From contig CBDBMJ010000001.1 in assembly GCA_965207455.1 (NCBI GenBank), positions 1,696,001 to 1,760,000 on the forward strand: a stretch of DNA of 64,000 nt, in the 5' to 3' direction. This document shows, in pieces, positions 9,001 through 12,000 of the stretch. The position numbers were made by a program. This DNA comes from Bdellovibrionota bacterium. GTDB taxonomy: Bacteria > Bdellovibrionota > UBA1018 > CAIPTA01 > JAALKR01. How positions within the stretch are numbered: position 1 is the stretch's first letter; each line of letters starts with the position of its first letter.

Positions 9001-12000
9001 TCACCTTGTCTGCAAGGAGTTTTTTGGCAATTTCTTCCTCGGTACGGTCGGTGGCAAGAAGTTCTTTGGTACTGGGGAAATCAATTCCGTAGTAACAGGG
9101 ATTGCGAATGGGAGAGCAAGTACTAGCAAAATATACTTCCTTTGCTTCCGCTTTACGGACCATTTCCACAATTCGGGAGGAAGTGGTTCCACGTACAATA
9201 CTGTCGTCGACTAGTAAAACATTTTTACCTTTGATTTCTGTGCGCACGGGATTGAGTTTGAGGTTAACCGCTTTGTTGCGTTTTTCCTGTGTATTTAAAA
9301 TAAAACTTCTATTGATATAACGATTTTTAATCAGTACCTCTCGGTAGGGTAGACCCAGAGCTTCGGCCAAGGCAATGGCAGCAATGCGTGCTGTTTCGGG
9401 GACAGGGACCACTATATCTGGACGTATTTCCCCTCGATCTATGGCAGCTTTCACCAGCTTTGCCAAACCCTTACCCATGTCCAGCCGAGCCTCATAGACA
9501 GCTTTTTTTTCTAAAACGCCTTCCACACCAGAAAAATAGACCCACTCAAACATGCAAGGGGAATGCTCACTATTTTTTTCAATTATTTTGGAGTGAATTT
9601 CTCCATTCAAGGTAATATAGATCAACTCTCCTGCCTTAATATCCCGAACCACTGTGTAGTCCAGTATGGAGAAACCTGTTGTTTCCGAGGCCACGCAATA
9701 GGCTTTTTTTCCGTCGGGAAGGGTTTTTTCTCCCAACACTAGGGGACGAATGCCTTTAGGGTCGCGAAAAGCCACCATCCCTTGTCCAGCAATCATGGAA
9801 ACTACGGAATAGCCACCCACGGCCTGCTTAAAAACAGCCTCCACGGCTAAAGAAATTTGGTCGATGGATAGGGTGTCCTTAGGGGTACTCACTTCTGCGA
9901 GCTTATTAGCAAAAAGATTTTGAATGACCTCCAGGTCACTATGAGTTAGAAAATGCCGTCGACTTTCCTTTAAAAGATGCTCGGAAATTTCCTCATGATT
10001 GATAATATTTCCGTTATGGGCCATGCCGATACCAAAAGGATAATTCAACACAAAGGGCTGTATATAGCTTTCGTCTTCACTGGAACCGACCGTGGCGTAG
10101 CGAGTGTGTCCTATGGCGATATTGCCTTTGAGTCGCTCCAGTCGCTTTTTTGAAAAAACTTTTTCCACCAGACCCAGCTCTTTCCAGAGGTGAAATCCGT
10201 GGGCGCGAGAATCTTCCGACCCATCGTTATAGGATAGGATCCCCGCCGCATCTTGCCCTCGGTGTTGCAACGTAAAGAGACCAAGAAAAACCTCTTTTGC
10301 TGCTTGCTTCGGACCTAAAATCCCAATAATACCACACATATGCTTTGCCCAAGCCCATACTATACTGAAGGCGTAGCTTCGTCAACTGATTAGAAAAAAT
10401 AGACCGCCTTAAATGACGATTATTTGCTTTTTAAGGTTTTTGACGTAATGGACCCAAGCTTGGAGGGACTTGCCGAAGTTTAGCGTTAAATTTGAGAACA
10501 ACTGCGACAGGATTAGAAACAATGCGCACGTCAAAATATTCTTTACTGATCACGCCAAGGACATAGCACAAAAAATCCAAGCAATGTTTTGCATTAAAAA
10601 AACGAAAAGCAGAAAACAGAAAACAAAGGCGCATTATCAATAAAAATGTTGACATAGCTACTTTGCAGTATTCTAATCATTAATAGTATTTATTTTTTAA
10701 AAAATAAACAAACGAAACTAAATAAAGGAGAATAAAAAATGAAAAAGATAAAACACTATGCACTGATACTTTTATGTACGTTTTCTGTGTCAACAATGGC
10801 CAATGAAGGTCCGCTAGCTGATGAGGGGCATGATAACTCTTACTTCCAGCAACTGAAGGAATCTTTCCATAATGCAGAAACCGCGCAGAAGAATGATGTT
10901 ACTGGTTGGATAAGTGGACGATGCTTTCATCAAGATACACCAAACCTTGCTAAAAACGCATTACTTGCTGGGTTTTTTGATGAAACCGGTGAGGTTGGTC
11001 CTGGATTAGATTCAAAGCATAGGTTTGCGATCATCGTAAATAAAAATAGAGGTCCAAATTATTTCGACAATATTATGGAAGAAAAGAGAAAGGTGATCAG
11101 AGAAGCAGAAAATTTTATAACAAGCGGTGCGACGCTGTCGATACAGAAAAATAGAAGCCTTATCACTCATCTTAACTCCAGCACTAAATATAGCGTAAGA
11201 AAAGGAACAATATCAGAATCAGATGCAGATGAATATCTTCTAGTAAAAGTTGTCAATCCAACTGATGATACAAACTTCCTCCACTACTGCTATTACTTCA
11301 AAAAAGTTAGGGAGGAGTATTAAAGCATACGTACTTATTGTTTTATGTACGCTTTCTGTATCAGCGCTAGCTGATGAGACAGGGACAAAGGATAGTTCTC
11401 ATTACGACCGCCTGAAAAAAGCTTTTGATAATGCGCAAACAGCACAGGAGAGTGATGTTCTTGGTTGGATAAGTGGACGATGCTTTTATAAGAGCACATC
11501 AGACTTTCCTGAAAATTCATTACTCGCTGGATTTAACGATTTGCTTGATCCTGAATTGAATTCCAAGCACAAATATGCGCTTATTCAGCGTCAAGGAAGG
11601 ACTTCAGGCTATTTCGACAATTTTATCGAAGAAAACACTCCAGCTATAATACAAAAGGTAGAGAGTATTATAACAAGGTCTGCGAAACCATCAGTGCAGG
11701 AAGGTGGAAGCCTTATAGCTCATGTTAGTCCTAATACTAAGTATAGCCTAAGAAAGGGCACGATAGGGTTAGGATCAGATGCGGAATATCTCTTACTAAG
11801 ACTCGGTGTTCCAGACGATATAGCAGATGCCCATCGCTACTGCTATTACTTTAAGAAAATTAGAGAAGAACACCCGTCTCAATAGTCAAAATAAAATCCG
11901 CTATTTCGTAGATATTGCCATCTTGGAGGGGTATAGTGTAAACGGAGGTATTGATTATGAAAGTTATTCTATTTTTTTTAATGATATGTCCCGTGGTGAG

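Follow-up and report, generated by a model that had tools for sequence, protein, structure and literature searches.

Two adjacent genes of a Bdellovibrionota genome belong to what sequence comparison identifies as a real, unnamed protein family, which makes up about 1% of the ORFs of this genome. Both are tandem copies within a multigene family whose expansion took place in this Bdellovibrionota lineage, and each product is probably exported by the Sec pathway, leaving about 170 residues once cleaved. With confidence somewhat short of even, the family may be viewed as a repertoire of exported modules that work beyond the cytoplasm by binding variable macromolecular targets. What kind of target they bind, the binding role itself, where the proteins end up and their disulfide are all what we infer. 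In the mechanism proposed, strand 1 (GW.SGRC) and strand 8 (YCYYFKK) would be linked by a disulfide that closes the seam of a barrel. This seam, together with the helix and the GP and DG turns, would form a constant scaffold displaying variable loops and a helical hairpin at one barrel end, and these might recognise variable macromolecules present on prey, host or competitors or derived from them. The repertoire would grow by tandem duplication and dispersal, while recombination would couple a common cassette of promoter, leader and signal peptide with differing barrel bodies.

The gene pair and its family

The window is the whole stretch of 64,000 nucleotides that was analysed, C1:1696001-1760000. 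A preliminary description of this DNA had given correct start and end coordinates for the pair but a wrong position offset (1664000 in place of 1696000). The features of the two genes are as follows.

10649..10654, forward strand: -35-like hexamer TTGACA of gene 1, 90 nt upstream of the start, read from the sequence
10726..10731, forward strand: ribosome-binding site AGGAGA of gene 1, 8 nt upstream of the ATG
10739..11323, forward strand: family gene 1, ORF of 194 aa from ATG, profile match E 4.9e-76
10739..10801, forward strand: Sec-type signal peptide of gene 1, MKKIKHYALILLCTFSVSTMA, likely cut after residue 21
10922..10924, forward strand: Cys62 codon of gene 1 in the GW.SGRC motif of strand 1, invariant in 18 of 18 paralogs
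11288..11290, forward strand: Cys184 codon of gene 1 in the YCYYFKK motif of strand 8, invariant in 18 of 18, the sole other Cys outside the signal peptide
11319..11885, forward strand: family gene 2, 188 aa when read from ATT 11319, profile match E 1.3e-70
11481..11483, forward strand: first conserved Cys codon of gene 2
11841..11843, forward strand: second conserved Cys codon of gene 2

Genes 1 and 2 are tandem paralogs with a mutual identity of 47-49%, and the pair had been correctly recognised beforehand at 10739-11885, with both ORFs present and gene 1 carrying its ATG and AGGAGA. The signal peptide of gene 1 comprises three K/R residues followed by a 10-residue hydrophobic core (mean Kyte-Doolittle 2.6), with small residues at -3 and -1. 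Owing to an imperfect -10 element, its TTGACA was not scored as a full sigma-70 site in a promoter scan. Gene 2 is without a promoter of its own and lacks an ATG, GTG or TTG at the start position of its paralogs. That position is occupied by ATT, at 11319, in overlap with the TAA stop of gene 1 (11321-11323), and GGGAGGAG lies ahead of it at 11310-11317. The reading frame of gene 2 is open from TTG 11250 or ATG 11265, both inside gene 1. Since the dN/dS of gene 2 against gene 1 is 0.35, gene 2 was long under constraint. Both genes show a full-length profile match to the family, both cysteines and the C-terminal motif.

Across the genome, a tblastn search with gene 1 and a profile of 18 copies each returned 21 family loci, 18 on C1 and 3 on C3. 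The expansion described earlier thus stands, with its count of twenty revised to 21 loci, of which 18 are full-length and three degraded:

C1:57083: replaced at its 3' end, from immediately ahead of the second Cys codon
C1:1045425: frameshifted
C1:5197: 62-aa remnant

The earlier length of about 195 aa agrees with a median of 196.5 aa, while the mean pairwise identity is 33.5% rather than the 37% given before. The residues reported as invariant (G60, C62, C184 and F187) were the same four when 18 copies were compared in alignment A1. Beyond the signal peptide, every full-length copy contains two Cys and no more, in GW.SGRC and YCYYFKK; Cys62 is conserved in at least 90% of a 125-row alignment. 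Signal peptides, previously judged by eye, were called by simple rules (charged n-region, hydrophobic core, small residues at -3/-1) rather than by a trained predictor, and by these features 21 of 21 loci carry a Sec-type one. Upstream, a TTGAC[AG] -35-like hexamer occurs 73-152 nt from the start at 10 of the 21 loci and a GGAG-type ribosome-binding site within 25 nt at 15 (AGGAGA at 12), and the 5' leader around the latter is conserved at many loci.

The claim that the family is in no Pfam or NCBIfam entry was borne out by HMM searches against both, which gave nothing above noise; PDB sequences likewise gave no match at E<=10. A profile search of a representative library returned 476 proteins at E<=1e-3 (491 had been stated), 126 at E<=1e-10 and, as before, 17 at E<=1e-30. 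All 14 proteins from a word-based homologue search with alignment A2 are unnamed or labelled "hypothetical protein". A related-locus search with a single family protein, P0035, found no relatives, and a protein atlas offered unnamed clusters only, with scores of at most 0.88 and recognition under the usual mark. Within the literature searches made, which covered BMS_2152 and lipocalins in Bdellovibrio, no published description of the family was found; PMC11656739, searched by term, refers neither to a lipocalin or barrel nor to BMS or a signal peptide.

Among the three phyla sampled, the family is found only in Bdellovibrionota. With the broader profile A2 (E<=1e-5), 75 of 400 other Bdellovibrionota genomes match, including one of eight from the same order, which raises the 36 of 400 reported previously; the absence from nine genomes of the same order still holds with the narrow profile A1. 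None of 301 genomes in the phylum of a Moraxellaceae genome and none of 301 in that of a Mucilaginibacter genome (0 of 602 in total) has a match. Single copies, annotated as "hypothetical protein", occur in the cultured predators Halobacteriovorax marinus SJ (BMS_2152) and Bdellovibrio sp. HCB337. The motifs follow the order GW.SGRC ... GP.FP ... YFD ... DGSL ... RK ... CYYFKKV. The core motif is present in 108 of 131 distant members, 86 of these 108 ending 8-10 residues past the Cys motif and 95 having the GP loop. An N-terminal [DN]GP[LIVM] motif is common in the copies of this genome and occurs in 13 of the 108 distant members, and so is not family-wide.

A degenerate DNA pattern for CYYFKKV located at least 120 stretches, 80 of which were screened with the family HMM. 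Eight ORFs scored at E<=1e-3, five of them strongly (E 1.7e-31 to 2.9e-57), from three MAGs titled Bdellovibrionales, one titled Bdellovibrionaceae and one "uncultured bacterium". The three marginal ORFs (Acetatifactor, Sulfuricurvum and Psychroserpens; E 1.5e-4 to 6.2e-4) were set aside as chance because the search pattern itself provides the motif. Domain fusions consist of a Kelch propeller with a family domain (G052), two-domain tandems (P0065 and P0083) and unnamed C-terminal extensions, and they gave no clue to function. At the least, the family merits a Pfam or NCBIfam entry.

Predicted barrel and putative disulfide

An AF2 model built on the 125-row alignment (pLDDT 88.9, pTM 0.79) predicts an N-terminal helix followed by an eight-stranded antiparallel up-and-down barrel, with a helical hairpin between strands 3 and 4. 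A barrel-type fold had been proposed from an earlier prediction, and the small barrel obtained here agrees with it. The gene 1 product has a signal peptide at about residues 1-21 and, in the model, a disordered segment at 22-34, a helix at 35-45, eight strands within 56-191 (56-64, 72-81, 93-99, 132-137, 140-146, 149-156, 166-173 and 182-191) and the hairpin at 108-130. By the register of antiparallel strands 1 and 8, Cys62 and Cys184 would be cross-strand neighbours. Of the earlier description of the proteins as disulfide-stapled, the two conserved Cys are confirmed, and the bond itself we infer from where the model has its strands begin and end. The genome also contains DsbA-like genes.

The best VIA-align match of the model is Tcur_1030 (4mve) at Z 7.6, and the best Foldseek E is 0.011. 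Since every structural match falls below Z 8, which the aligner itself states to be its noise range, the fold is uninformative as to specific identity. These weak neighbours are for the most part barrels that bind ligands: Ycf58 (FABP-like), nitrobindin, nitrophorin, a putative lipid-binding protein and lipocalins. The lipocalins, at Z 5.0-5.5, are outscored by de novo designed barrels (Z 7.6). The preliminary label of lipocalin-like does not survive beyond this generic resemblance, as the G-x-W motif and the C-terminal helix are missing. It is a description of the predicted shape and not of family membership.

Expansion, selection and alternative readings

In a phylogenetic tree, 19 copies of this genome form one clade (SH-aLRT 98) and eight copies of a second genome, G132, form another (96-98). 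The two expansions are independent by this sequence evidence, and the earlier view of an expansion particular to this lineage is upheld, its copies forming a single clade. Recombination is shown by near-identical promoter and signal-peptide cassettes on unrelated bodies: C1:59303 and C1:128477 are 95.6% identical over -339..+90 and reach a dS of 1.9 beyond that, and C1:1041039 and C1:1043867 are 94.9% identical over -257..+195, with a dS of 0.9 beyond. The family had also been called diversifying, and for this genome that claim is not sustained, the dN/dS of the bodies being 0.26-0.93 and never significantly above 1, although it exceeds 1 in G132. There, barrel bodies have a dN/dS of 1.2-6.2 by four methods (YN00 for two of six pairs), and dN exceeds dS in 98-100% of bootstraps for three of five pairs, in 86% for the fourth and in 47% for the fifth. 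Because dS is likewise raised in the variable parts, recombination may distort these pairwise values.

Loops L7 and L5 and the start of L3 are the most variable parts in both expansions. Judging from strand order rather than coordinates, they would sit at one barrel end. Their pooled dN is 2.2-2.6 times that of the core. In this genome, omega is 0.84 in the presumed open-end loops versus 0.40 in the core. For the bodies of this genome, relaxed constraint alone could account for the divergence, and three of the 21 copies are decaying. A diversity-generating retroelement was rejected as the source of variation, there being no PF00078 reverse transcriptase match in this genome and the single reverse transcriptase of G132 lying more than 300 kb from any copy.

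These data bear on three other ways to understand the family. The proteins may be carriers of small molecules or lipids in the style of lipocalins or fatty-acid-binding proteins, with the interior holding a hydrophobic or anionic ligand taken up from prey or host and paralogs differing in ligand. The predominance of ligand-binding barrels among the weak structural neighbours fits this reading, as does R61, a nearly invariant residue of strand 1 that shares a face with W57, adjoins the aromatics of strand 8 and resembles the buried Arg of fatty-acid-binding proteins. Both expansions, moreover, occur in small genomes of 2.2-2.4 Mb (2.2 Mb for G132). A dN/dS above 1 in G132 together with mosaic recombination would nonetheless be unusual for invariant small-molecule binders, and no sequence match to the lipocalin, FABP or YceI families was seen. 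A carrier role is considered unlikely.

Less probable again is a neutral or decaying expansion, in which a dispensable exported protein was copied in tandem and by IS elements within a repeat-rich genome, under relaxed constraint and with no role as a repertoire. The omega range in this genome, the three broken copies among 21 and the loss of the start region in gene 2 are all in line with decay. IS transposases lie close to some copies, and the genome holds other large expansions, among them an RCC1-like family, whose largest cluster has 63 ORFs, and Sel1. Against this, 18 copies have kept their frames open, along with both Cys and every core motif, despite dS values of up to about 1-2, the core omega points to purifying selection, omega exceeds 1 in the second, independent expansion, and the family is retained across the phylum.

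The least probable of the three is that the proteins inhibit hydrolases such as proteases or lysozyme, either shielding the cell envelope from enzymes that the cell itself secretes or blocking enzymes made by prey or host; PliC/MliC, potempins, staphostatins and AprI-type inhibitors work in this way. Positive selection would be compatible with an arms race between enzyme and inhibitor, the genome has a 10-member subtilase cluster, and PliC, potempin E and a T6SS immunity protein appear among the structural matches, though with Z values within noise. The copy at C3:335547 sits between two V8-like trypsin-family peptidase paralogs, but it is the only one of about 14 genomic places beside peptidases, and a DNA methyltransferase at the same place suggests an insertion. 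A complex prediction for this protein and the adjoining V8-like peptidase, run without controls, scored 0.00 and speaks neither for nor against an interaction. The genes bordering a 5-gene array (L205 and L206) are paralogs of each other and not peptidases. At 29 loci in other genomes, no hydrolase recurs as a neighbour.

The repertoire of exported binding modules remains the favoured reading, although no conserved neighbour or partner turned up in this genome or, for 29 loci elsewhere, in the 76 proteins encoded nearby. The proposal of the preliminary description, that prey or host molecules are bound or inhibited, stays a conjecture. A more specific form of the favoured reading, which is unlikely, holds that the barrels are a natural one-scaffold binder library resembling engineered anticalins, whose open-end loops are diversified in predatory or host-associated Bdellovibrionota by duplication, cassette recombination and positive selection so as to follow variable surface molecules of prey or host. 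Were this so, the family would help set prey or host range; it has expanded independently in at least two small-genome lineages.

Comparison with known barrels and binding repertoires

Lipocalins and calycins (beta-lactoglobulin 1bsy, nitrophorin 2at3 and Blc) share with the family export, a length of about 170-180 residues and an eight-stranded antiparallel up-and-down barrel. Also alike are the N-terminal helix before a strand 1 that opens with a conserved Gly-Trp, one disulfide (putative here) and variable loops at one end. In lipocalins, however, strand A carries the G-x-W motif of SCR1 and strand H is followed by an alpha-helix that packs against the barrel, whereas the G56-W57 of the family has no spacer, its chain ends 1-3 residues after the last strand with no helix, and a helical hairpin lies between strands 3 and 4. 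Eleven proteins gave no match to the lipocalin HMMs (PF00061 and PF08212) at E<=10, and at E<=1 no lipocalin family stood among the best 25 of the 55 families that 125 members matched; the Z of beta-lactoglobulin and nitrophorin, 5.0-5.5, is below that of designed barrels. Tcur_1030 of Thermomonospora curvata, a structure of unknown function, aligns over 118 residues including the N-terminal helix (rmsd 3.5 A), but at 8% identity and with a Z in the range common for unrelated barrels.

PliC/MliC, potempins and staphostatins are small exported eight-stranded barrels that act through protein binding. Brucella PliC (Z 6.7 over 79 residues), potempin E (Z 4.8) and a T6SS immunity protein (Z 5.6) are among the structural matches, all within noise. 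The family differs in its larger size, due to the helical insert, in having no sequence match to them and in having no cognate enzyme gene paired with it: motifs conserved in PliC/MliC were not observed, and the HMM PF09864 gave no match. Genes for barrel-type protease inhibitors such as potempin and staphostatin adjoin that of the cognate protease, while no protease recurs as a neighbour at the 29 loci and C3:335547 is the sole instance in this genome.

Pathogens also have variable barrels at their surface: the C-terminal barrel of meningococcal fHbp, NHBA, HpuA and Tp0751 are eight-stranded too (Z 4.9-5.6) and bind host macromolecules, but these proteins are lipoproteins with a lipobox and have no sequence relation to the family. 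The bacterial lipobox is [LVI][ASTVI][GAS]C, its Cys falling at roughly residues 15-35. A canonical lipobox was rejected: in the copies of this genome the signal-peptide Cys comes too early and stands in (F/L)LC, with Leu at -1, and those of G132 have LAC or LSC with the Cys at residue 11. A signal peptidase I site comes after it. Outer-membrane barrels bear a C-terminal aromatic beta-signal; eight-stranded ones of the OmpA/OmpX/OmpW kind (PF13505) were rejected likewise, with no OMP HMM match and a C-terminus of ...YCYYFKKV plus 0-3 mostly charged residues.

The ways in which Bdellovibrio-like bacteria recognise and deal with diverse prey are only partly known; to date the main candidate is the repertoire of mosaic adhesive trimer (MAT) fibres of Bdellovibrio bacteriovorus (PMC10769870), whose diverse binding ends are proposed to recognise diverse prey epitopes and whose binding is experimentally shown. 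MAT fibres are long and trimeric, unlike a predicted 20-kDa barrel, and the two have no homology. As a multi-member repertoire of a predator in the same phylum, they would still be the closest analogue of the proposed mode of the family. An exported, unnamed family with a dN/dS above 1 in a second lineage is thus a new candidate for the prey-recognition interface, one that its single copies in cultured predators make genetically testable.

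The gene pair and its family in the genome

The preliminary description had drawn attention to an unnamed multicopy family of exported proteins with two tandem copies in this window, an observation that is confirmed and extended here. Its placement of the pair at 10739-11885 stands but the offset of 1664000 given with it does not, because the window begins at position 1696001 of contig C1 and ends at 1760000. The features of the window discussed below are as follows.

10739-11323, + strand: gene 1, 194 aa, ATG start
to 11885, + strand: gene 2, its frame open from TTG 11250
11951-12403, + strand: ORF of 150 aa directly 3' of gene 2
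14878-16035, - strand: RCC1-like ORF (PF25390)
30399-31646, + strand: RCC1-like ORF (PF25390)

Gene 1 is preceded by an AGGAGA site at 8 nt and a TTGACA hexamer at 90 nt from its start. Gene 2 is less conventional: the codon that matches "IKHY" of its paralogs is an ATT at 11319, overlapping the TAA of gene 1, and the homologous start position has neither ATG, GTG nor TTG; gene 2 also lacks a promoter region. Translation may be coupled from the ATT or begin at ATG 11265 with a longer n-region; alternatively, gene 2 may have lost its start recently. Since dN/dS against gene 1 is 0.35, gene 2 was constrained through most of its history. Its frame also stays open through the final 74 nt of gene 1 (11250-11323) and across the A6 run in the FKK codons, where a hypothetical +1 shift would join both genes into one protein; two-domain tandem forms of the family are known elsewhere (P0065 and P0083). 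The ORF at 11951-12403, whose N-terminus (MIMKVILFFLMICPVVSFASF...) resembles a signal peptide, matches nothing in Pfam, is without paralogs in the genome and may encode another small exported protein. Flanking the pair are what we take, from their translations, to be ordinary genes, purF-like upstream and tyrS-like downstream.

Both tblastn and a profile of 18 copies find 21 family loci in the genome. Eighteen are full-length (188-255 aa, median 196.5; mean pairwise identity 33.5%) and three are degraded.

C1:57083: 3' end replaced just ahead of the second Cys codon
C1:1045425: frameshifted
C1:5197: 62-aa remnant at the contig end

Residues G60, C62, C184 and F187, previously claimed as invariant, are so in the alignment of 18 copies. 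All 21 loci have signal-peptide features: the n-region is positively charged, a hydrophobic core is present, and residues -3 and -1 are small. Outside the signal peptide, each full-length copy carries two Cys and no more. DsbA-like proteins are encoded in the genome. A Cys within the hydrophobic core of the signal peptide is conserved in 15/18 copies, and in 8/8 copies of a second genome, G132, but is not part of a canonical lipobox.

Single-linkage clustering of 2057 crudely called ORFs makes the family the second-largest cluster (20 members, about 1% of ORFs) after the RCC1-like repeat family. These beta-propeller repeats are massively expanded, with 54 PF25390 matches and an ORF cluster of 63; the same search gave 0, 0, 3 and 9 in the compared genomes G132, G001, G002 and G028, respectively. 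Sel1-repeat and pentapeptide-repeat proteins also form clusters, of 15 and 7 respectively. Repeat expansions of this kind are a typical trait of bacteria interacting with eukaryotic hosts.

Putative regulatory signals and distribution

The family genes do not look like silent cassettes: a -35-like TTGAC[AG] hexamer of their own occurs at 10/21 and a GGAG-type ribosome-binding site at 15/21. Six 5' leaders (C1:1041039, 1042202, 1043867, 1045425, 1872257 and C3:335547) share a conserved inverted repeat of the AAGCA-N4-TGCTT type, located some 30-45 nt before the start codon; in a second subgroup (C1:131092, 131921 and 661293) this position is taken by a different hairpin-like repeat. Both may form structures affecting stability or regulation. 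The otherwise diverged paralogs C1:131092, 131921, 59303 and 1041039 have in common a stretch of about 50 nt (87-89% identity), some 20-125 nt past the stop, which may act as a terminator or be a small repeat.

Neighbours of the family genes are varied in the studied genome, and the 76 neighbouring proteins at 29 loci in other genomes are diverse housekeeping products without a recurrent partner. At C3:333657-337088, a DNA methyltransferase-like gene and copy C3:335547 are bracketed by two V8-like peptidases of the trypsin family, paralogs with 63% identity, all on the same strand. Copy C1:1517249 adjoins a tandem array (C1:1518742-1521303) from a different unnamed family (cluster of six, about 120-210 aa each), in which one member has a weak, below-cut-off match to OMP_b-brl (E 3.8e-5).

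Neither the paralogs nor 125 diverse members match Pfam, NCBIfam or PDB sequences. Among representative proteins, 476 match the profile at E<=1e-3 and 126 at E<=1e-10. Motifs common to the wider family are GW.SGRCY, GP.FP, YFD, DGSL, RK and a C-terminal CYYFKKV. Of 131 distant members examined, 108 carry the core motif, and in 86 of these CYYFKKV sits 8-10 residues before the end. At E<=1e-5, a broad profile matched 75 of 400 other Bdellovibrionota genomes, with up to eight candidates scored per genome, and 0/301 in each of the phyla of a Moraxellaceae and a Mucilaginibacter genome. Carriers include Halobacteriovorax marinus SJ (BMS_2152), H. marinus BE01, Bacteriovorax sp. BAL6_X (M902_2363), Bdellovibrio sp. 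HCB337 and several MAGs; named members are all annotated "hypothetical protein", and literature searches found no published description. The family is real, exported and unnamed; of the three phyla sampled, it was seen in Bdellovibrionota alone.

Independent expansions and their variation

A tree of 59 rows was built after eight duplicates, partial ORFs or artefactual long ORFs and the two copies of the studied genome shorter than 180 aa had been dropped. It unites the 19 remaining copies of the studied genome with SH-aLRT 98 and, in a separate clade (SH-aLRT 96-98), the eight of G132, a 2.17-Mb single-contig genome recorded as a Bdellovibrionales MAG. On this tree the two expansions are independent.

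G132, C1:427842-430302, 753187-754317, 787916-789079 and 1559891-1567671: eight family copies

Several genes of the studied genome are mosaic. C1:59303 and C1:128477 are 95.6% identical over -339 to +90, beyond which dS is 1.9, and the body of C1:128477 instead has 74% protein identity to C1:1872257; C1:1041039 and C1:1043867 are 94.9% identical over -257 to +195, with dS 0.9 beyond. Recombination therefore moves a cassette of promoter, leader and signal peptide between bodies. A diversity-generating retroelement is excluded, since the genome has no reverse transcriptase.

The family had been called diversifying, which is demonstrated in G132 but not in the studied genome, where body dN/dS is 0.26-0.93 and never significantly above 1. 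In G132 there is hardly any variation in the first 55 codons, where the median dS is 0.09, or in the signal peptide, helix and strand 1; the body has a median dN of 0.38 and dS of 0.31. Body dN/dS there is 1.2-6.2 for inner-clade pairs by NG86, LWL85, YN00 (which ran for 2/6 pairs) and ML, although recombination may inflate some values because dS also varies between loop and core parts. The deepest pair gives about 1.0, and dN exceeded dS in 86-100% of bootstraps for 4/5 pairs. In both expansions L7, L5 and the start of L3 (loops between successive strands) are the most variable elements, with strands 1 and 8 among the least. Strand order puts L1, L3 with its helices, L5 and L7 together at one end of the barrel. 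Pooled dN in these presumed open-end loops is 2.2 times core in G132 and 2.6 times core in the studied genome (omega 0.84 vs 0.40), where the faster loop change and mosaic recombination are supporting signs of diversification.

Predicted barrel and putative role

The AF2 model from a 125-row alignment (pLDDT 88.9, pTM 0.79) has a disordered N-terminus, a helix at 35-45 and eight strands; strands 3 and 4 are separated by a helical hairpin (108-130), and the conserved D-G of "DGSL" makes the turn from strand 4 to strand 5. Because residue 62 in strand 1 (56-64) would lie opposite 184 in strand 8 (182-191) in antiparallel register, a Cys62-Cys184 disulfide closing the seam is plausible from the strand limits, and the proteins are probably disulfide-closed.

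We tentatively regard the family as a putative repertoire of exported binding modules whose targets would be variable macromolecules. A role as small-ligand carriers appears unlikely, and a neutral expansion less likely again. Least probable is that the proteins inhibit hydrolases.

Structural comparison points to a generic calycin-type barrel as the predicted fold. The best Foldseek E was 0.011; VIA-align reached Z 7.6, to 4mve and also to a de novo designed barrel, followed at Z 5-7 by a long series of eight-stranded barrels, GrlR, PliC, Cap15, fHbp, lipocalins and nitrobindin, values under 8 being common for unrelated models by the tool's own statement. "Lipocalin-like", the earlier term, therefore holds as a description of shape but not of membership: unlike lipocalins, the family has no G-x-W, no C-terminal helix and no HMM match.
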